From positions 1-54,235 of IMG/VR virus record IMGVR_UViG_3300042934_000356: a DNA stretch of 54,235 nucleotides. One strand, given 5' to 3'. The notes under the pieces are model-generated. The model worked only from the letters and a program-made list of their open reading frames with translations, was not told where the DNA came from and ran no database searches. Source of the stretch: a virus. Taxonomy: Duplodnaviria; Caudoviricetes. Positions 2,385-23,354 of the stretch are shown here, one piece after another. Position 1 is the first letter of the stretch. Every line of letters starts with the position of its first letter. The position numbers and the translations under genes were made by a program.

Positions 2385-2402
2385 ATAAAACACAGATTTT
2401 AT
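2385..2402. repeat. ATAAAA-N6-TTTTAT site, copy 2
   Basis: ataaaa cacaga ttttat; contains the tail-fibre stop codon. Confidence 0.7.
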
Positions 2403-4786
2403 GCATATATTAATAAGTTTACATAACTTGGATTTGCATAATCACCGTTAGAATTCTTAAAATTCAATAACAGCTGCTTATTAGTGTTTCCACTCGGATA
2501 TTCTATTGTATATCCAGCTTCTGGTAAAATAATATAGTTACCGATAGTCTTAAAACTACCTTGCTTTAGATTTACAACTAAATGTCCCACACTCGGATTT
2601 TCAATGGATTTTATATTATACGCCTGTGTAAAGGAAGTCAAGTTCCCTATAAAAGCCATAGCAATAGGGTATTGAGAAATATAATTAGGAGCAAGTGAAG
2701 GTATATCATAAAAATTACCCATACTATTTAAATTTACATTACCAGTCTGTGCATAATAAGGCTGTGCATATTCTGGGTAATAGGTTTTAAAACTATTACC
2801 TTTCAAATTCAATACTGTAATATTATTTGCTCCTCCGGTGATATTTATGGTGTTGGCAGATGTTTGTGTAGACGTTCCATTCATGAAAGAGCATCCTGTA
2901 ATATTAATAACAGTATCTCTATCCGTATTAACTAACATTATGTTGGCTGTTCCGTTATTAAATTCGAAATATGTACCACTAATATTACAGCATGTGGATT
3001 CATTCACGCTTGGCTCAACTATGTATATAGGAGCATTGGAAAATGATTGAGTTTTATCTCCGCATCTTTCCATAGAACCATTGTAAATATTTAATTGGCT
3101 TCCTCCATCCATATAAACTGCATAAAAATTTATATCTAAAAATACACAGTCACTTATTGTTATAGCATTTGGCGGAGACATAACATCCATTTTCCCAAGC
3201 AAGATTCCCACTTTACAAAATGTTATTAAATTTCTATTAAAAGTTAAGAATATAACGTCTTTACACCTAAACCCACTATCAAAATGTGTTATAAAACAAT
3301 CGCTAAATTCTGAAAACAATACTCTGCTTAGAATTACCGCATATTCATTTGTTGTATCTGTTCCTCTTAATGTCATCCCTTTGAATACAAAAGATAAATC
3401 AGGATTGTTTGGGACAGGATTATTAAAACTAAAAATAGCACTGGTACTTGAAACTGTTTTCTTTAAATTAACTAACCACTTCCCGTCACCTATAATATTA
3501 ACAACTGCATTATTAGTTCCGTAGGTGATATTTACTGTACTATTAATTATGTATGTTCCTGTAGGAAAATACAATGTTCCACCACCATTAGCAAGTAGAT
3601 AATCAACCATTGACTGTAGATTTCCGGAATTATCACTTGTCCCAGTGCTGTCAGCTTTACCAATATTATTTGGAGGATTTAATACATTAATAAAATGATT
3701 TTTATTAATATTTATTTTTCCATTAACCTCATTTATAGCAACAACCAAATCAGCGTTTGATTTTGTTTGCAATTGGGTTAAGTCACCGACATCAGGAACA
3801 TTCATCGTTCCATTAATCGCTATTTTTACATTTCCTCCCCCTTTAACAATACCAGTTACTGTATCAGTAGCCATCTCTACAACAGCAATATACCCTAAGT
3901 TTATCCATGATGTACCATTGTATCTATAGCTTACATTCTCTCCTGTAACAGTAACTGTCCATCCATTTTCAGGGTTAGGATAAGTAGTTGCCAAATCTGA
4001 ATATGTAGGCACAGCATCCTTAAAAACTTTAAGTGTTTCAACAGCTAACTGGTTGGCAATAGCATTAGCATTAGTCGCAGCGGAATTTGCATTTGATGTT
4101 GCGGAATTTGCATTACTTGTAGCCGTGTTAGCAAGGTCAGCCTTTTCATTAGCATTAGTAGCAGCATTAATTGCTAAAGAGGCTTTACTATCGGCGTTAC
4201 CAGCTGCCGCGTTAGCCAAAGAAGCTTTGCTATTTGCATTAGTCGCAGATGAGTTTGCATCCGATGTTGCAGTGATCGCATTACTTGTAGCCGTGTTAGC
4301 AGCTGTGGCGGCATTATTAGCATTGCCTGTAGCTTCCTCCGCAAGCGTCAGTATCGCAGCAGCATCTCCAACTCTTAATTCCATATCTTGTAGAGCTGTG
4401 AATTCAGATGTATTAACTACAACAGACTCAATATCCACATTTTCTTCAATTAGCAAATGAAGTCTAAAGCTTTTTAATTCTCCACCAGTAAAAGAATCAG
4501 TTATTTTAAATTGAGCTGAGTGTCTGCCTGATTCGGCAGAAATAGCTGGTGTTATATCAAATTCAACTTGATTATTAACAACAGGACAATTATTGTATAT
4601 AACTGCTCCATTAAACTTAGTCATTTGAAACCTGACAATAGCAGTTGCTGGAATTATATATTCATTACTTCCATCAAGAAAATTAATATAAAACTTTCTG
4701 TCTATATTATCTCCTTGCGGTATATGTATTTTAATAAAAGACGATTGACTAGAAATATCTATATCTAGTGCCTTATTAATAGCCAT
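2399..4786 (-). CDS. Tail fibre/receptor-binding protein: BppU-like N-terminus, Ala/Asn-rich stalk, pectate-lyase-like beta-helix (putative depolymerase)
   Basis: QGD..RKF.I N-terminus; ATxxANxA repeats; ADSTG.SDNS..LQ..VD...GGGTLYFPTGTY beta-helix cap; AAAGGAGG RBS supports a start at 4786. Confidence 0.8.
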   Translation of the reverse strand: MAINKALDIDISSQSSFIKIHIPQGDNIDRKFYINFLDGSNEYIIPATAIVRFQMTKFNGAVIYNNCPVVNNQVEFDITPAISAESGRHSAQFKITDSFTGGELKSFRLHLLIEENVDIESVVVNTSEFTALQDMELRVGDAAAILTLAEEATGNANNAATAANTATSNAITATSDANSSATNANSKASLANAAAGNADSKASLAINAATNANEKADLANTATSNANSATSNANSAATNANAIANQLAVETLKVFKDAVPTYSDLATTYPNPENGWTVTVTGENVSYRYNGTSWINLGYIAVVEMATDTVTGIVKGGGNVKIAINGTMNVPDVGDLTQLQTKSNADLVVAINEVNGKININKNHFINVLNPPNNIGKADSTGTSDNSGNLQSMVDYLLANGGGTLYFPTGTYIINSTVNITYGTNNAVVNIIGDGKWLVNLKKTVSSTSAIFSFNNPVPNNPDLSFVFKGMTLRGTDTTNEYAVILSRVLFSEFSDCFITHFDSGFRCKDVIFLTFNRNLITFCKVGILLGKMDVMSPPNAITISDCVFLDINFYAVYMDGGSQLNIYNGSMERCGDKTQSFSNAPIYIVEPSVNESTCCNISGTYFEFNNGTANIMLVNTDRDTVINITGCSFMNGTSTQTSANTINITGGANNITVLNLKGNSFKTYYPEYAQPYYAQTGNVNLNSMGNFYDIPSLAPNYISQYPIAMAFIGNLTSFTQAYNIKSIENPSVGHLVVNLKQGSFKTIGNYIILPEAGYTIEYPSGNTNKQLLLNFKNSNGDYANPSYVNLLIYA

Positions 4787-4808
4787 AGTTCCTCCTTTCA
4801 TTTTTTTG

Positions 4809-5213
4809 TTAATTGTTCTCATCAATCATAAAATCAAGATTAAATAGAAGATACGGTTTAATTTCTTTTGATTTACCTTCTATAAAATAAGAGAGTGGAA
4901 TAGTTAAAAATTCTATTTCACTCTCACAATTAAGCAACTCATTATGTTTTTCTATATATTCAGCTTTTATATTTGGATAAATTTCTGGTTCATTATTAGC
5001 ATTAATAACAAAAGATCCATCCTCTTTTTTTATGGCATATTCATCTAAGAGTTTTCTTTCAAATTCGGCGTAATCTTTTAGAACTGATTCGATTTTTCTT
5101 AAATTTCTTCCAAGATTCCATCCAGCTTTTGTGTCTAAATCATAAGACATTAGTTCAGTAATAGAATTACTTATATTAATTAAATCTATATTTTTAAAAA
5201 TTTTCCTCTCCAT
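4809..5213 (-). CDS. Conserved phage tail-region protein (DUF1617-like)
   Basis: WNL.RNL.KIE...ERKLL.EYA.K.EDG pattern typical of small genes preceding tail fibres. Confidence 0.6.
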   Translation of the reverse strand: MERKIFKNIDLINISNSITELMSYDLDTKAGWNLGRNLRKIESVLKDYAEFERKLLDEYAIKKEDGSFVINANNEPEIYPNIKAEYIEKHNELLNCESEIEFLTIPLSYFIEGKSKEIKPYLLFNLDFMIDENN

Positions 5214-5229
5214 AAAATCTCCGTTTCAT
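5212..5229. repeat. ATAAAA-N6-TTTCAT site, copy 3
   Basis: ataaaa tctccg tttcat; on the minus strand it supplies the GGAG RBS and overlaps the ATG of 4809..5213. Confidence 0.7.
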
Positions 5230-5432
5230 CTTTATTTTTTCGTATCAAAAAAGCACCCTCTATGAAAAGATGCTCCTTAATAATTACCAGTATTTTTTTA
5301 ATCTTTCTTTTTTTACAACATTCACATTCATATAAAACGCCTTTAATCCTATCCACCAAATAGGTGTTTTATAATAAATATCTTTCTACCCATGTATGCT
5401 CACTTTTTCATATTTTGTCTCTTCTTTCTTGA

Positions 5433-5510
5433 TTTTATTTCAATTTGTTACAACTATTGACATAGTTATTATATGGTGCTATCCTTATATGGTAAATAAT
5501 ACCTAGGAGG
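5433..5510 (+). promoter_or_regulatory. Moron promoter/leader module, copy A
   Basis: TTGACA(5457)-17 bp-TATCCT with TG extension, then TATGGTAAATAATACCT and AGGAGG; homologous to 14951-15030. Confidence 0.75.
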
Positions 5511-5520
5511 AGGGTTATAT

Positions 5521-6399
5521 ATGTCTGTAAGCGAAAATTTTCAAACCTTTTGCTCAAATTTAAGAATGGATTCAGATACTATTAGTACAATTCAAAACAG
5601 GTATCATCAAATAACCAAACGAATTAATCTTGATTATTACAATAATACATCTGATACCAATCATAGTCTTTATGTTGGTTCATATGGTAGAGGAACAGAA
5701 ATATTTACAAGCGATATTGATATGATTGTAGTATTGCCATATGCGACATATGTAAAATTTAATGCATATTCAAGTAACGGACAATCTGCCTTATTACAAG
5801 AAGTTAAAAATATTCTTCAAAAAACATATAGTACATCATATCTAAAAGGAGATGGACAGGTAATAGGAATTAATTTTTCAGATGGTATCAACTTTGAAAT
5901 TGTTCCTGGTTTCATCAATGAAAATGGTTCCTATACATATCCTGATTCTAATAATGGCGGTAGTTGGAAAACTACAGATCCTAAAAAAGAAATCGATGCT
6001 ATGAATACAATGAACGCTGAAACTAATAAAAATTTAAAACGATTATGTCGTATGGCACGATCATGGAAAAATAACTGCTCAGTATCTCTAAACGGTATTT
6101 TAATTGACACATTGGCATATAAATTCATAAAAGACTGGGATTATAAAGATAAATCTTATTTATATTATGATTATATGAGTCGTGATTTCTTTAAATATTT
6201 AAAAGATGTTGATACTTCCCAATTATATTGGTTAGCTCCTGGTAGTAATAAATTTGTATATAAAATTGGCAATTTTCAAACCAAAGCCTCAACAGCTTAC
6301 AACCTATCATTAGAAGCTATACAAAAAGAGTCGGACGGATATTCAAGTTCCTCAAAGCAAAAATGGAGAGAAATTTATGGAACGAAATTCCCAAGCTAG
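5521..6399 (+). CDS. SMODS/CD-NTase nucleotidyltransferase (CBASS-type cyclase)
   Basis: GSYGRGT....SDIDM motif, FEIVP third acidic residue, GGSWKTTDP, LKRLCRMARSWK. Confidence 0.9.
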   Translation: MSVSENFQTFCSNLRMDSDTISTIQNRYHQITKRINLDYYNNTSDTNHSLYVGSYGRGTEIFTSDIDMIVVLPYATYVKFNAYSSNGQSALLQEVKNILQKTYSTSYLKGDGQVIGINFSDGINFEIVPGFINENGSYTYPDSNNGGSWKTTDPKKEIDAMNTMNAETNKNLKRLCRMARSWKNNCSVSLNGILIDTLAYKFIKDWDYKDKSYLYYDYMSRDFFKYLKDVDTSQLYWLAPGSNKFVYKIGNFQTKASTAYNLSLEAIQKESDGYSSSSKQKWREIYGTKFPS

Positions 6400-6958
6400 C
6401 CAAGGTTATAAATTGGAATCTCAAATTAGAGAAGCTTTTGGACGAGTAACTTACACGCAGACTTGTCATGATAAAATAATAAATAGGTTATTAAGAAAAA
6501 ATAATAACATAAAGATATGGCAAATAATTTTATCTTCTTTTACTTCTGGTAGTTTTTTAGTGTCCATCTTTAGTAATCAGAAAATTTCAAGTTTTATTGG
6601 TGCAATACTCTCATTACTTTTATTAGTATTAAATACTTATGTAAAGAACTTTGAGTTAGTTCAAACTTCGTTACAGCATCAATATGCTTCAGATGCATTA
6701 TGGAAAATACGCGAAGAATATGTATCTTTACTGACTGATTTTGAACTGCTCTCTTCTGAAGATATAATGATAAAAAGGGATGAGCTTCAAGAAAGAACAT
6801 CAGAAGTCTACAAAAGTTCCCCCAGGACTGATCCAAAAAGTTATAAGCAAGCGCAGAAATCATTAAAAACAGAAGAAGAACAAACTTTTTCAGAAAAAGA
6901 AATAGATGTAATGTTACCAAATTCAATTCGACGTGATAATCGCCAAACTATTGATTAA
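6377..6958 (+). CDS. SLATT-family two-TM effector, overlapping the CD-NTase gene
   Basis: REAFGRVTYTQTCHDK, two TM helices, H...SD.LW.IRE.Y.SLL.D, PRTD..Y..A...L...EE.TFS..EID..LP. Confidence 0.85.
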   Translation: MERNSQASQGYKLESQIREAFGRVTYTQTCHDKIINRLLRKNNNIKIWQIILSSFTSGSFLVSIFSNQKISSFIGAILSLLLLVLNTYVKNFELVQTSLQHQYASDALWKIREEYVSLLTDFELLSSEDIMIKRDELQERTSEVYKSSPRTDPKSYKQAQKSLKTEEEQTFSEKEIDVMLPNSIRRDNRQTID

Positions 6959-6960
6959 TA

Positions 6961-7143
6961 TTACTTTAAAGTATGTTTACGATTTATAATCTGAATTTCG
7001 TTAATTTCTTTCCATAATTTATTAGAAATTTCTTTTTTAGAATTACATAGAGAACAATAAACTACACTAATATTACACCCAACAACATTAGTGTAGTTAT
7101 TTATTTCTTTCCAAACATGTTTGCAAAATAAATTCTTTATCAT
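6961..7143 (-). CDS. Small prophage zinc-ribbon protein (LFCKH.W...CxxC)
   Basis: GGAGGG RBS; CKH and CSLC motifs. Confidence 0.65.
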   Translation of the reverse strand: MIKNLFCKHVWKEINNYTNVVGCNISVVYCSLCNSKKEISNKLWKEINEIQIINRKHTLK

Positions 7144-7354
7144 TTTCCCTCCAATTATAAATTAATTTTGTAGCCATAATAATATCAATTTAACCCATCA
7201 AAAAAGCACCCTTCGAGTAGAAGAGTGTTTAGTATATGTTTTTTATTTAGTTTTTGACATTAAAAAACACCTCCCAATGAGATGTTCATAATTAGCATTT
7301 TGCTTATAATATAAGTCCAGTACTTAATATTATAAACTTTGTAGATATTATTTT

Positions 7355-7534
7355 TTAATAATACCCTGTTTCAAATAAAAGATCGTCCCATGCTTGTTGT
7401 TCCATATCTTCTAGTTGCCACTCAAGTTCCTTAATATCTTGGTCAAGCCACCAAGATTCCATACATTTTTCTGTGAATTCTTCTCTGTCTTCATAAGCAT
7501 CATTAAGATATTCTTCGTAATCATCCTGATTCAT
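7355..7534 (-). CDS. 59-aa highly acidic, aromatic-rich protein
   Basis: GGAGGTG RBS before ATG 7534; own TTGTAA-17-TATAAT promoter near 7607-7579. Confidence 0.6.
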   Translation of the reverse strand: MNQDDYEEYLNDAYEDREEFTEKCMESWWLDQDIKELEWQLEDMEQQAWDDLLFETGYY

Positions 7535-7750
7535 GAAATTTTCACCTCCATGCATTAGTGATGTACATGTACAAAATGATTATAACACTAAGGTAAATTT
7601 TTTACAATATATAAATATGAAAAAAGCACCTACAAATTAATGTAAGTGCCTTTTCAGGTCAGAATAAAAATTCCGACACACATTTTTAAAAAATATGATT
7701 GATGTGAAAACATCAATTCACCGTATTAGTATATATTTATTATAGGTCAA

Positions 7751-8383
7751 TTATGCCTTTTTGTCAATATTTATTTTAATATCTAAATTTTTTATAATAG
7801 CAGTATTAACCAAATTTAAATTGTCATCAGTTATTTTTGCAACTGGTGTTAATGATAATCTTTTTTTTGAAATTTCTCTCATATGAACTATATTAATATA
7901 TCCGTCAACCTTCTGAGTATAACCATCTTCAATTTCAACTGGTATTTCGTAAAAATCTATTAATTTTAATCTTTCCGTTCCATCTTTTGTTTTACACCTT
8001 ATATAACTTTTCCCATCTTTCTCTACTATATCTTTATGCTCGTATGTTGTAATTGGTGCAACAATTGTAGTATCTGCTTTGGTGTTTCCAACATCATTTT
8101 GTAAAATAACAACAGGTCTTTTTAAACCCTGTTCACTTCCAATGTTTATACCCAATTCACAATAAAATATTTCACGTTGCTTAATCACTTTTGGAATATC
8201 CTTAGTTCTCAAGTCTATGCTTTTATTAATCCATTCTAAAAACTCTAAGTTACCTCCCAATACATTTGCGTATAAATTTATATTCTTTTTCAAGTGAAAT
8301 AAAAATTTACTAAGTTTTGCTATTTCTTCAGTTAATTTAAAAATCAACTTAGGAATATCCCCTATAATATATTTATTCTCCAT
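7751..8383 (-). CDS. PemK/MazF-family endoribonuclease toxin with N-terminal extension
   Basis: EIFYCELGINIGSEQ..KRPVVILQND.GN....TIVAPITT and REISKKRL; alternative start at 8398. Confidence 0.85.
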   Translation of the reverse strand: MENKYIIGDIPKLIFKLTEEIAKLSKFLFHLKKNINLYANVLGGNLEFLEWINKSIDLRTKDIPKVIKQREIFYCELGINIGSEQGLKRPVVILQNDVGNTKADTTIVAPITTYEHKDIVEKDGKSYIRCKTKDGTERLKLIDFYEIPVEIEDGYTQKVDGYINIVHMREISKKRLSLTPVAKITDDNLNLVNTAIIKNLDIKINIDKKA

Positions 8384-8539
8384 TTCTCTTCTCCTCATCC
8401 TAGGTATAATATACTATTATATGACAAACTGGTAAGAGATGGAAGAGTGAACATATGTTTATTGTAGTAGTTATGCGATAACATGGTAGGATGTCAATTG
8501 CAAAATAAAAGAGAGGGAGAATACCCACTCTAATTGTAG

Positions 8540-9094
8540 TTACCATTTATATCCGCAACTTTTACATTCAAATGTCTTTCTTACTTTACTACTAAATAAT
8601 CCAAACATAGCACCACCAACTGCTTTTTCTGACAATGATATCTTCTTAATACTAGTAGAATTACAAGTTGGACATTTTGGAATATTTATATTTTGGGCAA
8701 CTGGCTGTGTATCTGTATAATTATAATATTTATTTTGTGGTGGTTGCGGTCTTACTCCTATATCTACTGGATTTTTATGTATATCTAATATTTCAATAGA
8801 AATTAAGTTGTTACAAAATGGTTGAGCAAGTTTTTTAACTTCATCATAAGATAAGTTTTCTGCCAAGATAACTGGTGAACTATCAACAATGTCTTTAGCT
8901 TCTTTCAAACCATAACCAAATAGTTCTCTAACTATTCTTATTGCTTTTATTTGAAGGGGCGTTTGATTAAGTTTCAACGTATATATATCAGATTCAATAT
9001 TATTTACATTCTTAATCGGACAACCACAATGGGGGCAGCTCACTGCCTTATCGGATATTTCCCTGTTACATTCTGGACAATTTATTAGTGCCAT
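8540..9094 (-). CDS. Zinc-ribbon / ribosomal L7/L12 C-terminal-like / zinc-ribbon protein
   Basis: CPEC..CPHC; IKAIRIVRELFGYGLKEAKDIVD; CPTC..CKSCGYKW; own TTGTCA-17-TATAAT promoter. Confidence 0.75.
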   Translation of the reverse strand: MALINCPECNREISDKAVSCPHCGCPIKNVNNIESDIYTLKLNQTPLQIKAIRIVRELFGYGLKEAKDIVDSSPVILAENLSYDEVKKLAQPFCNNLISIEILDIHKNPVDIGVRPQPPQNKYYNYTDTQPVAQNINIPKCPTCNSTSIKKISLSEKAVGGAMFGLFSSKVRKTFECKSCGYKW

Positions 9095-9168
9095 AAAATA
9101 CCACCCTTTTTTATTTTATTATATATCAGGTGGCATAATATGACAATAGAAGTGTAGATGTTTAAACC

Positions 9169-9378
9169 CTATCCTATTTTTATCTCAATTGAATCAACCT
9201 TATGAATGCCATTTTTAAGACAGAAAAAGCTTAAAATATAACCAAATAAATATATTGCAAGATATATATAGTTTCCACCCTGTAATATTAAATAAATACC
9301 AAATGGAAAAAACATTAGTAGTAGTAAAGTATATATAATCCATCCATAAATTTTGATTTTTAGTATTGTTGTTTCCAT
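9169..9378 (-). CDS. Small two-TM membrane protein
   Basis: AAGGAG RBS; two hydrophobic segments. Confidence 0.6.
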   Translation of the reverse strand: METTILKIKIYGWIIYTLLLLMFFPFGIYLILQGGNYIYLAIYLFGYILSFFCLKNGIHKVDSIEIKIG

Positions 9379-9395
9379 AATTTCTCCTTATTTTT

Positions 9396-9407
9396 GAACA
9401 AATGTTC
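9396..9407. promoter_or_regulatory. Putative LexA (Cheo) SOS box
   Basis: GAAC-AAAT-GTTC, a perfect Firmicutes core, just upstream of 9169..9378. Confidence 0.55.
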
Positions 9408-9482
9408 TGTATACCATATTTATCCATATTGTGATATTATAATTATACCTTGTGTCCGACATAAGCAGGAAAGGATACATAA

Positions 9483-9566
9483 GTGACCGATTTTTGTGCT
9501 ATAGTGTCTACTGTTACCGGAGTCATAGCTCTGGTGATTGCAATAGTAGACCATAAAAAGAAGTAG
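9483..9566 (+). CDS. Type I toxin-like peptide, 27 aa (MTDFCAIVSTVTGVIALVIAIVDHKKK), absent from the ORF track
   Basis: AGGAAAGGA RBS, GTG start, one TM helix, C-terminal DHKKK; the leader 9458-9467 is complementary to 9660-9669. Confidence 0.7.
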   Translation: MTDFCAIVSTVTGVIALVIAIVDHKKK

Positions 9567-9720
9567 TAATGAATTTTTAATTTTGTGCTATTAGTATACG
9601 GATTGGCTAAGTCATATATACTATGGGTGACTCCAGAACACAGTAATAAAACTACTCGTTGCTTATGTCTTAGGTATAGAAGGTGTAGGCTATAATGTAT
9701 ACGAATGCACGAAATGGGTA

Positions 9721-9748
9721 TTGACAAATTTTTTATATGTATTATAAT
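9721..9748 (+). promoter_or_regulatory. Consensus sigmaA promoter
   Basis: TTGACA-16 bp-TATAAT; the palindromic ATTATAAT also provides a minus-strand -10. Confidence 0.65.
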
Positions 9749-9754
9749 GAAGAT

Positions 9755-9895
9755 AGTACAAAAATCAAAAAAGTCATTGATGTAAACTTTTTGAGTCTGC
9801 ACATACAACCTAGTCAATTGTATGAATAACCAGATTTAAATCTTCATCATCAGAAGAAAGTGGTGCCTTAGAAATAGGGTGCCATTTTCTTTTGC
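9755..9895 (+). ncRNA. Candidate small RNA of about 140 nt
   Basis: Follows the consensus promoter; hairpins TCAAAAAAGT/ACTTTTTGA and CATACAA/TTGTATG; ends in a terminator near 9854-9895; no ORF with an RBS. Confidence 0.4.
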
Positions 9896-9949
9896 TTTAT
9901 ATTAATATTGCATTACAAAAGGCTGAGATTTCTCCCAGCCTAATTACTA

Positions 9950-10798
9950 TTAAGATTTAGTTGTTACTGTTTTAGTATATAAAACATTTGAAATAGACTT
10001 GTTTTGCTGAGTTACTAAATCTGGTATGTTATTCTGAATTATCTCAATTTTGTATTTGGTCTTGGGATCTAGTTTGGTTATAGTGTTTTTGGTGTATTCT
10101 TTTCCATTGACTTTGAAGGTATAACGATTATCATTGTTATTAAGGTTGATTTTAATAGAATCTTTGGTAACTGTAATCTTGGGAGCTATGGTAAAATTTA
10201 CGATGAATTGACTGTCAATTACATTGAATTTTATTTCAGAAGGAGTAAATCTAAAATTCACTAATGTATATCCAATCCTTGTGTTATATATATTTTTTGA
10301 AAAACGGATATCACCACTAACTTTTCTTCCAATATAATCTGTTATATTCAAATCATCTTTTATTTTAGAATCATATGATATAGAAGTATACTTATCTATT
10401 CTATTATCTAAGCTATTCACTTCAAAAATTTTAGAATCTTCATATAATATTGTTGGATCAAATTTAACAACCTTTAAATTAATTGTATGTGTAATCAAAA
10501 AATCACTACCATTATGAAAAAAGGTAAGAGTGTACTGTGATGTATTTAAATTGACAGTTCCCCCAGAATACATAACATTAAAATCATCAATAGAATACTC
10601 TTTGTTATTATGGATTATCTTACCAGTAATTGAAAAATCACTCGTCATTGGGAAGTCTCCTTCCATATATGATTTATCATTAGTTATTTCTCCATAAAAC
10701 CCATTTTCTAAAGTTTCTTCAGCAGCTTCAACATGTAAAGAAGACAAAGAAATTCCAATAAATAAAAACATTAGGCATAAACTTATTTTAAGTTTCAT
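9950..10798 (-). CDS. Secreted/surface protein with signal peptide and C-terminal FN3-like domain
   Basis: MKLK-hydrophobic-VEA signal peptide; ITKLDPKTKYKIEI motif; own TTGACA promoter. Confidence 0.65.
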   Translation of the reverse strand: MKLKISLCLMFLFIGISLSSLHVEAAEETLENGFYGEITNDKSYMEGDFPMTSDFSITGKIIHNNKEYSIDDFNVMYSGGTVNLNTSQYTLTFFHNGSDFLITHTINLKVVKFDPTILYEDSKIFEVNSLDNRIDKYTSISYDSKIKDDLNITDYIGRKVSGDIRFSKNIYNTRIGYTLVNFRFTPSEIKFNVIDSQFIVNFTIAPKITVTKDSIKINLNNNDNRYTFKVNGKEYTKNTITKLDPKTKYKIEIIQNNIPDLVTQQNKSISNVLYTKTVTTKS

Positions 10799-10886
10799 TA
10801 TACCCCTCCTCGTTATTAAATTATATATAAATAAGTATAAACATTATTATCATAACTTGTCAATCTTTACATATTGCTAACTTAAA

Positions 10887-13800
10887 TTATATTCCTATTT
10901 TTGCTATTATTTTTTGTATCATAAGAGTATTCCAAGCATGCATGTTTTCATAATTTACTACATGAATTTTTCCGTCTAATAAATATTGCCCTTCATCTAG
11001 ATTATCTCTTTTATCTCTAATTTCTATAATATTATAATCTAAAGCACTATACCCATATTTTTCAAATGCAGACTCTATTTCTTGCGCTAAGAATCCAAAG
11101 TGCGTGCCTTCACCATATCCCTTGCACTTAAATTCATACATTTTTGGTTTAAGTTCCATAAATAATCCATAGGGCAATTCTTCTAACGATTTAATATTTT
11201 TTTTCAATCTAAAATCTGAAGAACTTTTTCGTTGAAAATTATTATCAACCCAGTTATATCCTGCGGCTCTAGCACCATTAAATTGAATATATCCATCAGT
11301 TGAATCATCTGCTGGAATTATATTTGTATGAATATTATATGTGGTTAAAACTATTTGCCCTCCTGAGTAAACCGTTTGTCCAGATATCGTCCCAAATGTA
11401 CCAGAAGATGCGCTCATTCCTCCGTTTGCTGTTAATGCTCCACTTAATGTCATTGTTTTAAAAGTTCCATCACCATTTTCACATTTAACTCCTGTACAAA
11501 CAATATTTCCATTGGTAATTAAAAGTTCATTAGCACCATTATTATAAATTCCTATCTGTTTAGCTCCTATAAAAGTATATCCGGCAGAATCGTCAGAAAA
11601 ATCATTTGAATTCATTGGTTTTACTTTTATATAATTTGTAGTTATGTATCCATTTTGAATTAGTGTTTTTTGATATATAGAATCTCTATAACCAGTAGAT
11701 GTCAACGTACTACCGCTTATTGTACTACCTGTTATATTTGTACCTGTTACAGTTCCGCCAGTAATTGTACCACCATTAATATAAGAACCAGATATAGTCC
11801 CTCCGGTTAGAGTTCCATTAACGGTTAAATCCCCAAGAGTACCACCTGTAGCATTAATGTATCCCTCAATATTCAACCTATTATTAACCGTATCTACATA
11901 TAGCTTGTTACTTCCATTAACTGCAATCCTGAAAATTGAGCTAGGAGTATTAGGGTTAATTCCCACTGTATACGTATTTCCATTCAATATAGAAGTAGCT
12001 GTAAACCCATTGTTATTAATATTAAAAGTACCAGATTCATTTATAATAGAAAGATTCTGTCCAAGAAGTAAATCTCCACAAATCAAAGGTGCCCATACTC
12101 CGTACATTGTTTGTCCATTATAAGTACCTTCTCCAATAGCCATTTCAACAGACTGCCAAGAATCTCTTGTTAAATACCATCCGTTACTCGTTCCCCACAT
12201 CTGATTAGGAGAATAATTGTCTGTACCATCAATCAGCTTCCGTAGTTTGACTCCGGTTGAATCTGCTACAAATGTTTCGTTAGATGAATTTTTTAACTTT
12301 TGATTAGCCAAATTAAGTGTAGAAGACATATATTGACTGAATGTACTTGTCTTATTCTTAGCAGTATTCCAACCAGTTCCACTTATATTGTAAGCCGTAG
12401 AAACACCATTTGCCTGTGATTGTATTTCTGCTAATTGCTCGAAAACACCATCTAATCTATTTTTACTGCCAAATGTCAAGCTGAAGTCCTCTGGGTTGTC
12501 CCAGTTCATATGTATTTTTAGAAGCCTTGATTCAACTAAAACTCCATTTCCAAAATCTAATGTGATTATATTTCCTAATTCCAATTGGTCTGTATACTCT
12601 TTAAATTCTGGGATGGCTGCAAAGTTAACAGCATCTACTTCAATTTGGTATTGTGGTTTACATCTTTTAGCTAAATCAGATTGGGCTAAAGCAAGTAAAT
12701 CTTTCTTCATTTGCAGCACTTCACTTGTTGTCATAGCATCAGTAGCAACAAATGTGTCATCTGTAAAGGTATCTTCGTGATAATATCTACTTAGTTCCTT
12801 ATATAATTCATCTCCCAAAAAATCATGGATATTAAGTACAAGAGATTGACACAGAGCAGATTGATTATCTATTTGTGTTTCTTTAGAGGATATTTGATTT
12901 TTTCTTACTATAATTTCATTATCAACCGCAATATAGTAATTGTACGCAACACTATAATTAGGATTGCTTGTATCGTTTATGGCAACATAATCTGCCATTG
13001 TATTATTATAAGTATTATGTTTTACATTTAACTCTTTTAAACCATATTCCGACCAATTTGTGCTGCCAGGAGTTGATGGCAATTTATTATATAAATCATT
13101 TAACTCTGCATAATAAGATTGGAGAGTAGTAATAGCATTATTAAAAACTGTCTGCCTGTTATTATACTCGATCTGATAAGCATCTAACCTATTTTGCAGT
13201 GCAGTACTCATCCAAGGTTTATAATAACTAAAGTTTGTTATTTGATTATTACCAGATGGATTAACTTCAATTATCCCAAGAGTACTTCCATTATCATCCC
13301 CACCAGCTACTGTATAGACTGTTTTTATATCACTAAAATTAGCAGATTGGCTAATTGACTTTACAAGATTTCTATAAGAAAGATAAATGCTTGTCACTTG
13401 ACCTATGTTCTCTAATTTATAAGCATTTACCGTTTGATTGTATGTATCAAATTGAAATATACACTCAAAAGTTTTACTAACATCCTCAACCAGAAAGGAG
13501 TATGCTCCCACCTCATCATTAGTAAAAGTCCTGTATTCCTGAGTAATCATCGGGTCAACATGTCCAATTGACCATGAAGGAAGTTTCTTCTGCCAAATAT
13601 GTAATATACTATGTTCTGGGTCTGCAATACTATATAGTCTATATCTATCTAATCCACCCTGTTCATCATCATCTGTTCCTAATTGACCAAATGATGTAAG
13701 GGTTTTAGACGTTGCTTCATTTTCCAAGGATGAAACATTGACTTCTTTATATTCATAATTAGTTCCATATCCATATTTGTCAGCCTTTGTAATTTGAAAC

Positions 13801-14033
13801 CATCCTAAATAGGTGATCTCTACTAACCTTAACATTTCAATACTTTCATAATTGGACGTTTCTATTCCATCCTCATATTTATATACTTTGAAAGTAGCGG
13901 TTGATATATTATTAAAGCACATGTCAGATTGTAATTCTCTTGCTTGTATTGTACCTAAATGATTTTTATTAGGATCTGCCAAATATATAAATGGTCTTTC
14001 TAATCTTTTAAAATAATCTAAACTATAAGACAT
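10887..14033 (-). CDS. Tal/tail-spike protein with C-terminal peptidase S74 intramolecular chaperone
   Basis: Follows Dit; C-terminal SSDFRLKKNI..L...LKPK.Y...GFLAQE motif; G/T-rich beta repeats. Confidence 0.85.
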   Translation of the reverse strand: MSYSLDYFKRLERPFIYLADPNKNHLGTIQARELQSDMCFNNISTATFKVYKYEDGIETSNYESIEMLRLVEITYLGWFQITKADKYGYGTNYEYKEVNVSSLENEATSKTLTSFGQLGTDDDEQGGLDRYRLYSIADPEHSILHIWQKKLPSWSIGHVDPMITQEYRTFTNDEVGAYSFLVEDVSKTFECIFQFDTYNQTVNAYKLENIGQVTSIYLSYRNLVKSISQSANFSDIKTVYTVAGGDDNGSTLGIIEVNPSGNNQITNFSYYKPWMSTALQNRLDAYQIEYNNRQTVFNNAITTLQSYYAELNDLYNKLPSTPGSTNWSEYGLKELNVKHNTYNNTMADYVAINDTSNPNYSVAYNYYIAVDNEIIVRKNQISSKETQIDNQSALCQSLVLNIHDFLGDELYKELSRYYHEDTFTDDTFVATDAMTTSEVLQMKKDLLALAQSDLAKRCKPQYQIEVDAVNFAAIPEFKEYTDQLELGNIITLDFGNGVLVESRLLKIHMNWDNPEDFSLTFGSKNRLDGVFEQLAEIQSQANGVSTAYNISGTGWNTAKNKTSTFSQYMSSTLNLANQKLKNSSNETFVADSTGVKLRKLIDGTDNYSPNQMWGTSNGWYLTRDSWQSVEMAIGEGTYNGQTMYGVWAPLICGDLLLGQNLSIINESGTFNINNNGFTATSILNGNTYTVGINPNTPSSIFRIAVNGSNKLYVDTVNNRLNIEGYINATGGTLGDLTVNGTLTGGTISGSYINGGTITGGTVTGTNITGSTISGSTLTSTGYRDSIYQKTLIQNGYITTNYIKVKPMNSNDFSDDSAGYTFIGAKQIGIYNNGANELLITNGNIVCTGVKCENGDGTFKTMTLSGALTANGGMSASSGTFGTISGQTVYSGGQIVLTTYNIHTNIIPADDSTDGYIQFNGARAAGYNWVDNNFQRKSSSDFRLKKNIKSLEELPYGLFMELKPKMYEFKCKGYGEGTHFGFLAQEIESAFEKYGYSALDYNIIEIRDKRDNLDEGQYLLDGKIHVVNYENMHAWNTLMIQKIIAKIGI

Positions 14034-14809
14034 CAGACACCGACCTTTCTAGCTTCTTGATAGGAGAGTGTGAGAGTGCATGGATTGCTTACTGTTAAAA
14101 TATTCATACCATCAACTAATCTTATCCAATTTTTATTAAATGCGTCCCATACTTTGTGACTGGATAATGAAGTGTTTATTAATGGAATACTACCTATAAC
14201 CGAAATAACCTCTCCATTAGCTATATTAGTAATAGAAAATACTTTTACATCGTTACTATTGGATATACTAAGAGTTCCTATTGCATTTGATACTATGGAC
14301 ATATCAGGATAGATATAATCGTCATCATCATGATTTATAAATAATCTGATTTGCTGGTTAGCAGTAGTGATATTAAATGTCTTTTTAATTAACCTGGTAT
14401 GAGCAAATGGGTACTTACAGGTTACAGTGAATTCCATTCCATACACTTTTCCAACTCTTACTATTTTAGGATTTGAAATATTTACTTTCAAAACAAGGTC
14501 AAGAAATCTATCATCATCTATTTCAAAATCAACATATTTGCCACGCTTGCACAAGCACTTATTTAATTCTCTCTCTTGTACCTGAGTAATATTAGTAAAA
14601 TCTTTATTTAGTACTTGAAATGTAAAAGATAGAGGAGAAGAGTAGTCTTGATTCACAATATGAAACGCTGAACTATTACTAGCTTTGGCTGTTTCAATAT
14701 TGGTTTCTCCTGTACTACTAACTGTTTCTAAACCTATCTGATTAAATGAAGCACATATTATTCCAAGACTATCACTCGAAATTTTGTCTGCTATAAAACT
14801 ACAAAACAT
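14033..14809 (-). CDS. Distal tail protein (Dit)
   Basis: Lies between tape measure and Tal; C.YPFAH, YIYP, FNKNWIRL..G.N motifs. Confidence 0.8.
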   Translation of the reverse strand: MFCSFIADKISSDSLGIICASFNQIGLETVSSTGETNIETAKASNSSAFHIVNQDYSSPLSFTFQVLNKDFTNITQVQERELNKCLCKRGKYVDFEIDDDRFLDLVLKVNISNPKIVRVGKVYGMEFTVTCKYPFAHTRLIKKTFNITTANQQIRLFINHDDDDYIYPDMSIVSNAIGTLSISNSNDVKVFSITNIANGEVISVIGSIPLINTSLSSHKVWDAFNKNWIRLVDGMNILTVSNPCTLTLSYQEARKVGV

Positions 14810-14950
14810 TAAATCACTCCTCTCTATATTATTTTCGCATCAAAAAACACTCTTCAAATCCAAAAGTGCTACAGGGTTTATCAGTGTTTTTATAACAAAA
14901 ATCTTTTTCAATCTTTGTATATGTACAAAAAATCGCTTCTTCTTTTATAA

Positions 14951-15030
14951 TTTTATTTCAATTTGCTACAACTATTGACATAGTCAATAAATAATGCTAT
15001 CATTTATGGTAAATAATACCTATAAGGAGG
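14951..15030 (+). promoter_or_regulatory. Moron promoter/leader module, copy B
   Basis: TTGACA(14975)-17 bp-TATCAT, TATGGTAAATAATACCT, AAGGAGG; homologous to 5433-5510. Confidence 0.75.
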
Positions 15031-15040
15031 ATTTTTTTTT

Positions 15041-15688
15041 ATGCCAAATATCGCATTACAAGATTTAACCGCAATGATTCACAGTACATCTCGTTATAAT
15101 GGTGGTCAATATGATTTAGTACATGTTGAAACCATTATTACAACAGATTCCCCAATTCCACAAGATAAATATTGGTATGTCCCAAGTGGAGTGACTTCAA
15201 ACCCAATAGCAGATACTATTTTTAAATCACTAAATATGTCAATGTATCCAACATCAGAAGAAGAACTTCTAGCAGGAACAGAAGATATATTTGAACAAGC
15301 CAAGTCTGGAAATTTCGATGGTACTTTAGAAGATTCTTCAAAATTAATGATGCTTTCATTAATGAAAAAACAATCTATTGAGCCATTGGTTGGTGCAACA
15401 AACTGTTATAGATTAGCATATGATTACAAGATATTCCCAGTAAGCAATAATTTTGATTTTAAAGTGCAATTACCTTTTAGTGGTCTTGGGATGGCAAATG
15501 GCAGTATTGTTCAGATGACAATAATCATGCCATTAAGTTCTGTAATTGATGCTGAAGCAACAGAAGGTATTGCTGTAAATGGGCAAAAAATTGAAGAATT
15601 AGTTACACCTATTACGAATATAAATCGTAATATTATTAGTTTTAGATATCAAAATGATCCTATTTTTACAATCAGATACCATTATTAA
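15041..15688 (+). CDS. Hypothetical moron protein, 215 aa, no family recognised
   Basis: Antisense to the late genes, with its own promoter, RBS and terminator (about 15695-15731). Confidence 0.8.
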   Translation: MPNIALQDLTAMIHSTSRYNGGQYDLVHVETIITTDSPIPQDKYWYVPSGVTSNPIADTIFKSLNMSMYPTSEEELLAGTEDIFEQAKSGNFDGTLEDSSKLMMLSLMKKQSIEPLVGATNCYRLAYDYKIFPVSNNFDFKVQLPFSGLGMANGSIVQMTIIMPLSSVIDAEATEGIAVNGQKIEELVTPITNINRNIISFRYQNDPIFTIRYHY

Positions 15689-15734
15689 TCTTAAGGGGAG
15701 AGTGTAATATCAATACTCTCCCCCGTTCTTTACT

Positions 15735-15905
15735 TTACTTCTCGAAATTAGCTTTCTGCATTACAATACCAGCCTTGGCTATTAAATTAATATCATTAGT
15801 GCTGACTATGATTTCATATAATCCAGCAATAATGTTATTTTTTCTTTCAATATTTTCATTTAATATATCTATCTCATTTTCTGAGTTTATTAATTCGTTA
15901 ATCAT
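15735..15905 (-). CDS. Small hypothetical protein, about 56 aa (MINELINSENEID...)
   Basis: GGAGG RBS and ATG at 15905; shorter than the ORF-track cutoff. Confidence 0.5.
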   Translation of the reverse strand: MINELINSENEIDILNENIERKNNIIAGLYEIIVSTNDINLIAKAGIVMQKANFEK

Positions 15906-16047: not shown

Positions 16048-19000
16048 TTAGTGCTTTTGATTCCACAATGAAATTAAAGTTTGATTTCCTTTTTCAACTG
16101 CTTTCTGTGCTATTAATTCAAGCTGTTTAATGTTAGATGAATCAACATTTCCTTCTACTTTTATTAAACTATCATACTGAATATTTATAGGATTGCTATT
16201 TTGAATATTAGGATAATTATTATTTCCAGAAATAGAATCAATAGCTGGCTTTATCATAGGGGCATATCCCAACAATGTCTTAAACTGTTCCGTTTGAGCA
16301 GAAGACAACATAGCTTCATCTCTCTTCATTAGAGTGAAACCTTCATCTTCAAGAGAATTTACAAGTTTTCCGGTACCACCTTGACTAAACCCAGCTTTTT
16401 TCATAGCTGCTATCAACTTGGCATTTTGCGAATCAGTTCCTGTATAACTTCCACTCAATCCAAAATATTTGTATAGTTTACTTCTTGCTGAAGATGAAGA
16501 ATCTAAATCATTATACTTTAACCTATCTACAATTGATGTATCTTTATTGAGAGATGATTTATTACCAGTGTATTTTACAGTCGAAATTGGAAGTTTTGAA
16601 CTAGATGTAGAACCTGTACTTGAAGATTTAGAAGTAGATGCGTTGCCTTTAGTACCTGCCCCACTTGCTGCGCCACCAGATGATGAACCTTTCCCAGCTC
16701 CAGAACCACCGGAGCCATCAGAATCCCCACCTGTTTTGGGGACGCCATCAGCACCGTTATCCTTTGGTAATCCATCTAAAGCTACTTTATATAAATCTAT
16801 TGCGGTTTTAGCCTTTTCCCAAGGACTTACAACACTATTAGTAACGTTTAAACCATGCTCAGAAGCAAGAGTCTGTATTCCAGTACTTATTTCTGTGGTA
16901 TTAGAATAAACCTCATTTAAAGCACTTTTTACCAAAGCTTCTTGGTCATTCAATGATTTTTCAAGAGCAGCAACCTTTTCATCTTGTGATTTCTTATAAG
17001 AATCATATTCATCGTCTAAAGCGTCTGATTGTGCTTCTATAGAATGTTGATATTGTTCTTCATCTAAGTCTGCTTGCTGGTCTTTTAAATCTTTTTCCAA
17101 CTTAAGTCTTTTAGCAATATCGCTTCTCTCAGTACTTGACTTTAGAGCTGCTATCTGTTTCTGTAAAGTATCAATAGATTTTTGCTTTTTATTTATAGAT
17201 TCCTGATAGTCATGTAAATCTTTCTCGGCTTGTAAAGCTTCTTTTTTCGCATCTACCAATTCTTTAAAAGCATCGGTTTCCTTATTTATAGCATCAATTT
17301 CAAATTGTATTCTTTGTTTGGCAATTTCTGCAATGGAATCCTCTAATGCCTGGTTATCTTTAACAGCTTGTCTCTGTAAACCCTGATAATTTGCAAGTTC
17401 TTCATTATATTGATCTTGAGTAATAGTTCCATTCTTAAGTTCATTCCCAATCTTTTTAATAGCTTTTCCATACTCAGAAGCAAGTTTAGTATTAGTATTC
17501 ATCTGCTGAGATAATAATCCTAACTTAGTCAATCCTGCTTCTGTATAATTACCTTTGTCGTCTAATATTTCAGAATCTCTAATCATATCAGATAAATCAG
17601 ATAGCTCATTTTTAATGTTATTAACTTTGGTTATACCCTTATCAAAACCCTTCCAATCAAGCTCCCGAATTTCAGTTTTATAATTATAAACTGCCGACTG
17701 TGACTCATTTATTGCTTTAGTCAAATCATTTATTTCAGACAATCCTTTAAGGTACTCAGGGCTGTTTTTTGTAATATCACCATTTTTTACTTGCTCATTA
17801 AATTGTTTAGTGTAAGCAGCCAATTCTTTTTGACTATTTTTTTTATCATCATTTTGTAATTTAATTAATGCTTTATAATCATGTTTGGTTGGGCTTTTAC
17901 CACTATCGGTTTTTAATAATACTTCAGATTCTTTTCTTGAAATCTTTGCACTAATATAATCATTTCTGTCTCCAAAGTATTCAGTAATATTGGTTAATTT
18001 CTGTGCATTAAGCTCCTTAATTTTATCATTAATGTTTTTGATTTCATCAGCAACACCAGCAGCTGCTTCTTTCCACTTTTGATATTCTTCAATCTTTTTA
18101 GCAAGTGCTTCGTTTTTTATGGTCTGAATATTAAAGCCACCATTATTAACAAGATCTTGATATTTCTTTGGTAATTTAACCTTATCAGCCATCTTATTAT
18201 AAGATTTCATTAAAGATGTAAGACTCTTTTTCTCGTCAACTTGAGCGGTAATAGCAATTTTAAGTTGATTATTCTGACTCTTATAATAAATGTATTTGCT
18301 TACATCATCAATTGCTTTTTGAGCCTTTTCTTTGAGTTTATCAATGCGAATTGCTATCCAATCGAATACTTGCGAAAATTCATTTTTCGTTTTATCTTTG
18401 GTTTTCTTTTGCTTGTCACTGGTTGAACTAATACCACCTATTATTTTAGATGTATAATCAGTACCTTCAAAAATACTTTTTAATTCATTATAATTTTTTT
18501 GTGCAGAAGTAGCTTCACTTGATAATTCCTTTAATTTCTTTTTCTGCCCATCTAAAAAAGTGCTATTTGGATTACTCAAATTACCAATTCCAAAAATATT
18601 CAAGTCATTTGATTGCTTTATAATGGGGTCGTTATTTGTTTGTAATTCGGCTTCTAGTCCAATTAATCTGGCTCTTTGAGTATAATATTCTCCCCATTTT
18701 TTATTTAATTCTGTTAATAACGTACCATCTATATCAGCTTTCGCTTGCGCTAATGATTGCCAATTTTTGATATCAATCTTATAGTCATCTGATAATTTAT
18801 TTATTCTATTCTCATTATTTTTAACTATAGTTTTAAATAAATCTGTATCCATTTCCAGAACTGATTTATAGTAATCTTCAGCCGTCTTTTTTTGTTCTTT
18901 TATAGCTTTCTGAAGTTCTTCTCTTAATTGAGCCTCATCACTAACATACTTGAGCAACTTAGGATATTTCTGCGAAATAGTATCAAGACTATCAGATGTT

Positions 19001-23034: not shown

Positions 23035-23065
23035 GCCTCTATCACCTATTATCCTTTCAGTATTA

Positions 23066-23242: not shown

Positions 23243-23354
23243 AACAATCCCTCCTGTCTATAAATATTATAGTTTTAGAAAATTATGTAGGTTCCAGCCA
23301 CATTGTTTTAATATTAAAGTTTTAATATAATAACGTGGTGTGGAGGATTTACAA

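Follow-up and report, generated by a model that had tools for sequence, protein, structure and literature searches.

A repeated promoter/leader as a probable platform for exchangeable accessory genes in the tail gene cluster of a large siphophage lineage

Why would a phage carry two homologous stretches of noncoding DNA among its tail genes, each directed against the surrounding genes and each followed by an unrelated gene? The question is raised by IMG/VR record IMGVR_UViG_3300042934_000356 (Duplodnaviria; Caudoviricetes), a 54,235-bp stretch of DNA that was analyzed over its whole length and is referred to here as the window. Its GC content is about 30%, it is 31% complete by CheckV, and its recognizable phage genes are all on the minus strand. 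The only plus-strand units are a two-gene cyclic oligonucleotide-based antiphage signaling system (CBASS) at 5521-6958, a gene for a 215-amino-acid (aa) protein at 15041-15688, and a small helix-turn-helix (HTH) gene at 23340-23546. The first two are each preceded by one copy of the repeat. We consider it probable that this repeat is a host-type promoter/leader platform for exchangeable accessory genes, placed antisense in the tail cluster of a large siphophage lineage.

Two copies of one promoter/leader precede unrelated genes

The original prediction had described 5433-5510 and 14951-15030 as homologous. Repeat finding within the window recovered the pair as family D2 (5420-5486 versus 14938-15004, 85% identity over 67 nucleotides [nt]), and BLAST aligned 5422-5516 with 14940-15034, again at 85% identity (E = 1.4e-25). 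The repeat is thus real. A local alignment of the two copies, called A and B below, covered 97 columns, from TCTTCTTT through AGGAGG. As had been proposed, the similarity ceases at the ribosome-binding site (RBS), and the coding sequences beyond it are unrelated: copy A is followed by the CBASS pair, beginning with a SMODS cyclase gene, and copy B by the gene for the 215-aa protein.

Both copies consist of an AT-rich tract, a TTGACA −35 element, a 17-nt spacer, a TG-extended −10 element, a leader identical at 18 of 18 positions, and AGGAGG. Module copy A (5214-5520, plus strand) takes up the whole intergenic region between a late gene, termed the anchor gene below, and the cyclase gene. Its AT-rich tract and predicted promoter lie at 5430-5485, with the −35 element at 5457-5462 and the −10 element TGCTATCCT at 5477-5485 (score 10/12 with the TG). 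The leader TATGGTAAATAATACCTA (5488-5505) and the Shine-Dalgarno (SD) sequence AGGAGGAGGG follow within 5488-5520. Module copy B (14810-15040, plus strand) is the whole intergenic region between the Dit gene and the 215-aa gene. Here, the tract and promoter lie at 14948-15003 (−35 element at 14975-14980; −10 element TGCTATCAT at 14995-15003; score 11/12 with the TG), and the leader (15005-15022) and the SD sequence AAGGAGG occupy 15005-15040. The −10 hexamer is TATCCT in the copy A promoter (5457-5485) and TATCAT in that of copy B (14975-15003). Given these predicted −10 positions, transcription would be expected to start 6 to 8 nt past 5485 and 15003, where GGTAAATAA has its GG. By score, the two predicted promoters are near the top of the candidate sites in this region, and the spacer between −35 and −10 is their least conserved part. 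The leaders fold no better than shuffled sequences (z of +0.3 to +0.4; +0.43 for the leader of copy A), and an Rfam scan of the module returned no family. When the late strand of the module was read for a divergent promoter, the only candidate was TTTACC-17-TATAAT, which is specific to copy A and not conserved in copy B.

Two strong promoters might have converged by chance on the sigma-A consensus, and the pattern TTGACA-N14-TGCTAYC-N4-5-ATGGTAA does match 15 unrelated promoter-like sites in GTDB genomes. Those 15 sites, however, share nothing beyond the pattern itself, whereas copies A and B also agree at nonconsensus positions, in 27 bases upstream of the −35 element and in the whole 18-nt leader. 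The 29-mer TTTCAATTTGYTACAACTATTGACATAGT occurs exactly twice in the window, a count reached in 0 of 100 shuffles (shuffle controls here and throughout preserved mononucleotide content only), and the 18-mer leader also occurs exactly twice. These counts and the BLAST E value of 1.4e-25 refute convergence, which we regard as exceedingly improbable.

Homologous copies in relatives precede other cargo

The kin of the window phage are complete genomes of 130 to 173 kb with direct terminal repeats (DTR). For comparison with them, site A was defined as the position divergent from the anchor gene, a 134-aa, DUF1617-like late gene (4809-5213, minus strand) that adjoins this site and lies just upstream of the tail-fiber gene, and site B as the junction between the tape measure and Dit genes, which are 1,238 bp apart in the window. 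Identity to the window proteins is 51 to 65% for the tape measure, Dit, and Tal of the complete genome G001 (130,653 bp, DTR). At site B of G001, the tape measure gene ends at position 5158 of locus L007 and the Dit gene starts at 5160 or 5217, with only a small hairpin between them; no strong match to the module was found in this genome (best E = 0.04). Judged by these comparisons, both cargo units of the window are insertions.

The second complete genome, G002 (139,975 bp, DTR; locus L020), encodes a homologue of the 215-aa protein with 87% aa identity. This gene is located at site A, not at the tape measure-Dit junction; it diverges from an anchor homologue (41% identity) and so holds the position taken by CBASS in the window. 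Its promoter, TATTGACA-N14-TGCTACCAT-N5-ATGGTAA, aligned with copy A at a score of 36, which none of 300 shuffles reached, and its leader carries a 14-nt insertion. The third record is L030, a metagenome contig whose anchor homologue (146 aa; 36% identity; E = 6e-29) is followed by a late-strand terminator, an intact 47-aa zinc-ribbon open reading frame (ORF), a promoter, and a cargo gene. Copy A as a whole is 66% identical to this region over 317 nt, and the L030 leader, TGCTATCCTAAAATGGTAAATAATACCTAGGAGGA, is nearly identical to that of copy A. The cargo of L030 is a ThsB-like TIR gene (PF08937, 1.2e-8; 35.7 bits versus a cutoff of 21.2 bits; PADLOC ThsB1, 5e-10). From the −35 element to the SD sequence, identity was 83% between copies A and B, 82% between copy A and L030, and 77% between copy B and L030. 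The occupant of site A is thus different in each of the three records (n = 3): CBASS in the window, the ThsB-like gene in L030, and the gene for the 215-aa protein in L020. Two of these three cargo types are recognized defense genes. Because homologous copies precede all of them, the three cargo types share, as judged by this homology, one promoter/leader within the lineage, and the element is not confined to the two genes behind it in the window.

A breakpoint is visible at the leader. From the first leader base (15005) onward, the window unit at site B is 79% identical to L020, over 920 nt that take in the 215-aa gene with its terminator and an ORF of 56 aa on the late strand. Upstream of this base, it is copy A that copy B matches (the 83% identity from −35 to SD), and not L020. 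This exact change of homology partner bears on the possibility that the promoter region was merely copied once, or homogenized by gene conversion, and has no role in cargo exchange. Such a one-off event would fit the presence of only two copies in the 54-kb window, the absence of the exact sequence blocks elsewhere in IMG/VR, and the lack of a further copy in complete G002, in which a match at 133,769 lies inside TnpB coding sequence. It does not account for the switch at the leader, nor for the homologous copies that precede a third cargo in L030 and, at site A of L020, the 215-aa gene. We therefore judge a one-off duplication to be quite unlikely.

At the tape measure-Dit junction, a distant 176-kb relative (MT835469; L071) also has an antisense unit (11050-11640, reverse). 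It consists of TTGACA-17-TATAAT, a leader of about 120 nt without an Rfam match, and a gene for a small hydrophobic membrane protein, and it is not homologous to the module. Because this relative holds another antisense unit there, the junction, too, is a recurrent insertion point.

Breadth of the platform

In all, four copies were found, in three records of one phage lineage. An nhmmer profile built from these same four copies scored them at 1.1e-19 and 4.4e-16 (window), 5.7e-19 (L030), and 2.1e-11 (L020); it revealed no fifth copy in the window and the relatives' loci, and neither L071 nor L072-L079 gave a comparable match. A pattern common to three copies was found in IMG/VR only on the contig of L020, and among 241 million metagenome records on one contig, L030. 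The exact 17-mer and 18-mer blocks gave three matches in IMG/VR, all due to chance and located inside or beside unrelated sequence. IMG/VR scans with the anchor and Dit proteins returned only two already known contigs or nothing, and blastn of the module against GenBank phages returned no match. With the looser pattern, each of the 15 matches in GTDB genomes was either coding sequence or a promoter-like site of a generic kind, and all lacked the leader. A sample of 401 genomes from one Clostridia family (388 scored, 13 not) yielded 24 partial, AT-rich matches, and none of the six best of the 24, which were read individually, contained the leader or the full module. The proposal of a standard cargo-swapping platform thus holds with respect to unrelated cargo behind homologous copies at separate insertion points, relatives included; the word "standard" reaches too far, since these searches found no copy beyond one lineage.

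These counts also bear on a different view of the repeat, namely, that it belongs to a general early-promoter family of a virulent phage. Many copies would then lie in the unseen 69% of the genome, and the cargo would be early accessory genes rather than morons expressed during lysogeny. The genome is certainly large, the window being 31% complete and its relatives measuring 130 to 173 kb with DTR, and the anatomy, with a sigma-70-like promoter, an AT-rich tract, small palindromes within the promoter or close to it, and an end at the SD sequence and start codon, fits the promoter early stem-loop (PeSL) elements discussed below. Yet complete G002 has a single copy (at the sensitivity of BLAST), G001 has none, and the other intergenic regions of the window contain no copy. 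Moreover, tyrosine recombinase genes and a distant tail kinship to Clostridium phages of the plasmid-prophage type allow for a temperate or carrier state. An early-promoter family of this kind therefore seems unlikely.

Late-strand terminators and the region upstream of the promoters

The similarity between copies A and B had been said to continue for 130 to 200 bp upstream of the core, including a terminator. Upstream similarity is real: the local score of the upstream parts alone was 36, compared with 19.2 ± 3.0 in shuffles, of which 2 of 500 reached it. It is limited, however, mostly to the terminator and its adjacent bases (5229-5302 versus 14823-14896), and the terminator is oriented for the late genes, on the minus strand, and not for the strand of the promoter. 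At site A, this intrinsic terminator (5241-5275, minus strand; −13.7 kcal/mol; z = −2.2; U6), here called family T, is followed by TTTTTTGATACGAAAAAA, an RBS, and the start of the 134-aa gene. A second family T copy flanks the CBASS unit at its other end (7196-7229, minus strand; stem 7227-7207; z = −2.4) and is 90.6% identical over 32 nt to the anchor-side terminator of L021, a further locus with a 215-aa gene. The copy upstream of the Dit gene (14836-14870, minus strand) has no mismatch to the family pattern and is weakened in its fold (z = −1.2); TTTTTTGATGCGAAAA, an RBS, and the Dit start follow. Family T relatives are also present in L030, in L021, and at 3886-3925 of L020, beyond the far end of the cassette there. 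Two more terminators of like sequence stand at 36562 and 42997, where no cargo is close by, and TTTTTTGATGCG follows each of them.

The terminators at 5241, 7196, 14836, 36562, and 42997 (minus strand) are repeatedly followed by TTTTTTGAT(G/A)CG(C/A)AAA, ahead of the RBS of the next gene. At 43007, this motif extends to a near-palindrome, GATGCGCAAATTTGCATC. The motif may act on the late strand as a signal for processing or regulation.

Between the terminator and the promoter, copy A contains a broken remnant of the small zinc-ribbon gene that is intact (47 aa) in L030 (5284-5412, minus strand). In this segment, the alignment with L030 matches at 105 of 129 bases, a score reached by 0 of 300 shuffles, and reading the remnant requires all three frames (MKK-stop, VDRIKGVLYECECCKK, and KKYW-stop). 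A corresponding remnant in copy B was considered and rejected, as 48 of 300 shuffles reached its score.

A model for cargo exchange

On the reading that we favor, the repeat would provide a sigma-A/sigma-70-type promoter, a leader of about 20 nt, and an SD sequence, from which host RNA polymerase would express whatever gene sits behind. The promoter/leader is conserved and the cargo is variable; therefore, the former would be the stretch of homology where relatives recombine and swap cargo. Exchange would proceed by homologous recombination between co-infecting or co-resident relatives, with the promoter/leader as one homology arm and the recurrent late-strand terminators or the neighboring late genes as the other. 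The late-strand and cargo terminators would insulate the unit. Site A would be the ancestral home of the platform in a lineage of siphophages of 130 to 175 kb, whose hosts would most likely be Clostridia or related Bacillota. The window phage would have had a second platform copy, together with the 215-aa gene and the 56-aa ORF, placed at the tape measure-Dit junction; having two copies, it would therefore have two slots. The genes could be expressed while the phage resides in the cell as a prophage or plasmid, or else at an early stage of lytic infection. The repeat, its promoter-like anatomy, the identity of the cargoes, the empty site B of G001, and three cargoes following homologous copies are direct observations; what we infer from sequence is that the promoter is active, how recombination proceeds, and when the cargo is expressed.

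Several points weigh against this reading. Recombination is deduced from breakpoints, and all shuffle controls preserved mononucleotide content only. The breadth of the platform is poorly sampled, because just four copies in three records are at hand and the pattern used for the metagenomes was itself derived from three known copies. L030 is a 1,195-bp contig, and it ends inside the ThsB-like gene, truncating this cargo at 91 aa. The L020 promoter is only 68 to 70% identical to the other copies, and in L021, the 215-aa gene stands behind a promoter that is not clearly homologous to copy A (27 of 300 shuffles reached the score). Between copies A and B, the stretch from the terminator to the promoter is not significantly alike (48 of 300 shuffles reached the score), so that either copy may have given rise to the other. 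Finally, the similarity of the terminators may be a general intergenic feature of this phage rather than part of a mobile unit.

The CBASS unit

The first gene behind copy A (5521-6399, plus strand) encodes a CBASS cyclase of 292 aa, a cGAS/DncV-like nucleotidyltransferase (CD-NTase) with a SMODS domain (Pfam SMODS, 4.3e-48; PADLOC PDLC00786, 1.3e-139); with the NCBIfam CBASS cyclase models, it remained below the cutoff (109 versus 200 bits). The second gene (6377-6958, plus strand) overlaps the first and encodes a 193-aa SLATT_4 effector with two transmembrane segments (Pfam SLATT_4, 3.7e-60; PADLOC PDLC00696, 6.2e-75). The unit has no further plus-strand gene and lacks Cap2/Cap3 and HORMA/TRIP13 genes; by its gene content, it is a type I CBASS, made up of cyclase and effector only. 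A hairpin with a T-rich tail at 7060-7098 (plus strand) is its likely terminator (−14.0 kcal/mol; z = −6.6; 0 of 200 shuffles). The terminator scan listed this hairpin on the minus strand, and it lies inside a 60-aa ORF (6961-7143, minus strand).

The cyclase is absent from the proteins encoded by five related large genomes (0 of 5). The loci of cyclase relatives in IMG/VR gave no blastn match to the module (0 of 10), and the upstream regions of three of them, when read, bore no likeness to it. These two results mark CBASS as a late arrival, and the module, to judge from the same loci, does not travel with CBASS genes. Upstream of the closest cyclase relative in IMG/VR (74% identity; L009 1925-1965), two GAAC-N4-GTTC motifs were seen, which resemble the LexA boxes of Bacillota.

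The 215-aa protein and its small ORF

The protein encoded behind copy B (15041-15688, plus strand) had no match in Pfam, PHROGs, PADLOC, or NCBIfam. Its 73 homologues are all "hypothetical" or unnamed; those with a named source come from Paenibacillus, Bacillus, and Cohnella, and a homologue with 43% identity adjoins an integrase in Clostridium phage CP51. The AlphaFold2 model (predicted local distance difference test score of 88) is a beta-sandwich with a helical insert. Foldseek searches of this model against the PDB gave template modeling scores of only 0.2 to 0.47, and the ESM Atlas contained only "hypothetical" clusters. With VIA-align, the best match was 4g2a, an uncharacterized Legionella protein (Z = 10.1), alongside beta-sandwich domains of M1 aminopeptidases and oligosaccharyltransferase subunits, none of them informative on function.

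The gene is followed by a strong intrinsic terminator (15695-15723, plus strand; 11-bp stem with six GC pairs; −19 kcal/mol; z = −5.0) and by the 56-aa ORF on the late strand (15735-15905, minus strand), which has homologues in L020 (83% over 35 aa) and L021 (52%), in both cases immediately after the 215-aa gene. The gene and its small ORF thus co-occur in three differing contexts, namely, the window, L020, and L021, and by this co-occurrence they move as a unit. Beside the cassette in G002, a 314-aa late-strand gene (L020 4286-5230, minus strand) matched the PADLOC candidate PDC-M59A (1.1e-7). An IS200/IS605-like TnpB/TnpA pair, named from its translations alone, lies about 4 kb away (L049 657-2391).

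Each cargo unit of the window is accompanied by a small convergent late-strand ORF, of 60 aa (6961-7143) and 56 aa (15735-15905), respectively. These ORFs could encode lytic-cycle partners or antidotes of the cargo. That the two are homologues of each other was rejected, as their similarity was not significant (E = 0.064). The slot that the 215-aa protein shares with CBASS and ThsB makes it a candidate for defense. A bolder proposal, to which we give only tentative credence, is that the promoter/leader and the late-strand terminator form a dedicated cassette-exchange system in these large siphophages of the Clostridia type, that the 215-aa protein is a new anti-phage defense protein, and that the ORF at 15735-15905 is its lytic-cycle antidote. 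If so, any gene between the two arms would be expressed at once and be transferable among relatives, and the antidote would spare the phage's own replication.

A palindrome over the −35 elements and the HTH genes

An ACTAT-N4-ATAGT palindrome was predicted to overlap the −35 element in both copies. It is present there, at 5453-5466 and 14971-14984, and in copy A, it extends to AACTAT-N4-ATAGTT (5452-5467). The window has three exact sites, compared with 0.14 expected, and 0 of 100 shuffles reached three. The third, AACTAT-N4-ATAGTT at 24009-24024, has the same 6-bp arms as copy A. It is located between an HTH_3 gene (24096-24329; 77 aa) and a gene for a 109-aa protein (23658-23987), about 12 nt downstream of an extended −10 element, TGATATAAT, on the minus strand.

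A shared HTH repressor had also been proposed. In that case, the palindrome would be the operator of a phage HTH repressor, most plausibly the HTH_3 protein rather than the HTH_26 protein encoded at 23340-23546, and both cargo units and the 109-aa gene would be switched together. Positions over the −35 element or just past the start site are typical for repressor binding, and the sites found here lie at such positions. The excess of exact sites points the same way, as does the location of the sole independent site in a 108-nt gap directly after the HTH_3 gene, near a promoter-like site. On the other hand, copies A and B are not independent of each other, which leaves one extra site, found post hoc, and a 5-bp inverted repeat is weak evidence alone. 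The palindrome is missing from both homologous promoters in the relatives, L030 and L020, the spacer of L020 having a different one, ACTTATTAATAAGT, that is unique in its 140-kb genome. The HTH_3/109-aa gene pairs of G001 and G002 likewise have no such site between or before the genes. Of the proposed repressor link, then, one extra exact site beside the HTH_3 gene speaks for it and the relatives speak against it. A regulon of this kind appears doubtful; it is compatible with the platform reading and could hold in addition.

The HTH_3 gene and the 109-aa gene, whose product could be assigned to no family, lie at 23658-24480 in the window and are paired in G001 and G002 as well (L056 and L057), so that the pairing is conserved. 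Only in the window are they split, by the 108 nt, and this gap bears a second promoter-like site, in which CTTATTATGATATAAT resembles CTTATTGATATAAT upstream of the HTH gene.

Gene layout and kin of the phage

On the minus strand, the window encodes a holin and an endolysin (96-1366), the tail fiber (2399-4825), Tal (10887-14033), Dit (14033-14809), the tape measure (16048-21801), and the terminase (38270-40105), the last followed by the portal. The tail genes match GenBank entries only distantly. The anchor protein is 28 to 32% identical to proteins of Clostridium perfringens phages, Dit is 32% identical to its counterpart in an uncultured 176-kb fecal phage and 23% to that in Clostridium phage c-st, and the terminase is about 26% identical to those of Bacillus siphophages. 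On account of these distant matches, the host is probably a member of the Clostridia or related Bacillota.

Within the tail module (21850-25498), a gene for a 409-aa HNH or homing-type endonuclease lies directly upstream of the tape measure gene, beside the two HTH genes and a gene for a 337-aa tyrosine recombinase. A recombinase (28% identity) is encoded at the matching place in G001, and none was detectable in G002. Between Tal and site A, the late strand has two accessory genes (7751-8398 and 8540-9094, minus strand). One encodes a PemK/MazF-like toxin domain that is extended by 70 aa at the N terminus, and the other encodes a zinc-ribbon protein with a domain like the C terminus of ribosomal L7/L12. 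A single tRNA gene is found among the replication-side genes (46744-46830, minus strand; Rfam RF00005, 48.5 bits).

Comparison with known systems

The closest parallel to the element is the PeSL of T4-type phages. As described in excerpts of two reports, a PeSL combines a strong early promoter of the sigma-70 type, an AT-rich tract upstream of it, and a stem-loop, and it ends at the SD sequence (Arbiol et al. 2010, PMC2839356), and it is repeated, recombination between copies swapping nonessential genes (PMC2839356; Comeau et al. 2014, PMC4122927). T4-like myoviruses, which have Gram-negative hosts, contain about 50 copies per genome, clustered in hyperplastic regions (PMC2839356; PMC4122927). 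The window element likewise has a predicted sigma-70-like promoter, an AT-rich tract, and a possibly associated stem-loop terminator, and it ends at the SD sequence and start of a presumably nonessential gene; its copies also mark breakpoints of insertion or replacement between relatives. Unlike PeSL, it is present in two copies in 54 kb, in one in complete G002, and in none in G001, and it belongs to a siphophage lineage of low-GC hosts. Its stem-loop, furthermore, stands 100 to 180 nt away on the opposite, late strand, and the promoter/leader itself contains only AT-rich palindromes of 4 to 6 bp. The window units are antisense in a tail cluster, and their cargo includes recognized defense systems, whereas the cargo of PeSL consists of ORFans. 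We therefore call the element PeSL-like and not PeSL, because the promoter and the breakpoints agree, the copy number does not, and the stem-loop lies elsewhere on the other strand. The idea of regulatory sequences as recombination arms would thereby be extended from T4-like myoviruses to low-GC siphophages and to defense cargo.

A classic moron brings its own unrelated promoter, unlike the conserved promoter/leader with variable cargo seen here. In other respects the window units resemble morons as portrayed in excerpts of PMC9122126: each has its own predicted promoter, cargo, and terminator, at site B between late genes that are adjacent in G001, and the cargo is presumably dispensable for virion production. 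They also resemble the phage defense hotspots described in parts of two sources (Rousset et al. 2022, PMC9122126; PMC13586616), in which a fixed locus between conserved genes holds differing anti-phage systems among relatives and neighboring genes of no known function become defense candidates by association. The hotspots in those parts of the sources are defined by flanking core genes, and their systems were cloned and tested with native promoters (PMC9122126; PMC13586616). Here, by contrast, one promoter/leader is common to several cargoes, and the hosts and phage types differ.

In our phage lineage, then, the conserved landmark would be the expression signal itself, whereas hotspots have so far been defined by flanking core genes. 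Conserved promoters before diverse small cargo are known from anti-CRISPR operons, in which inverted repeats are bound by an HTH anti-CRISPR-associated (Aca) repressor. In archaeal viruses, conserved early regulatory sequences precede anti-defense genes and, according to the portion of the source considered, can be used as bait for new cargo (PMC11065993). Both differ from the window in that their cargo is anti-defense and the HTH gene is in the same operon; two of the three cargoes here are defense genes, and the candidate HTH gene, with a putative link at most, is 9 to 19 kb from the window promoters. A full-text literature search found no shared promoter/leader before CBASS, Thoeris-type, and uncharacterized cargo in the tail module of a Bacillota siphophage.

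As with the archaeal sequences, a profile of the promoter/leader could serve as sequence bait for new cargo in an uncultured phage lineage. It already flags as a defense candidate the 215-aa family, in which none of the 73 homologues has an assigned function. In practical terms, the module may offer a compact, self-contained, and probably strong expression unit for Bacillota. Taken with the systems compared above, the window units are, as far as their sequences tell, morons by anatomy and a defense hotspot by content, with an expression signal as the conserved landmark.

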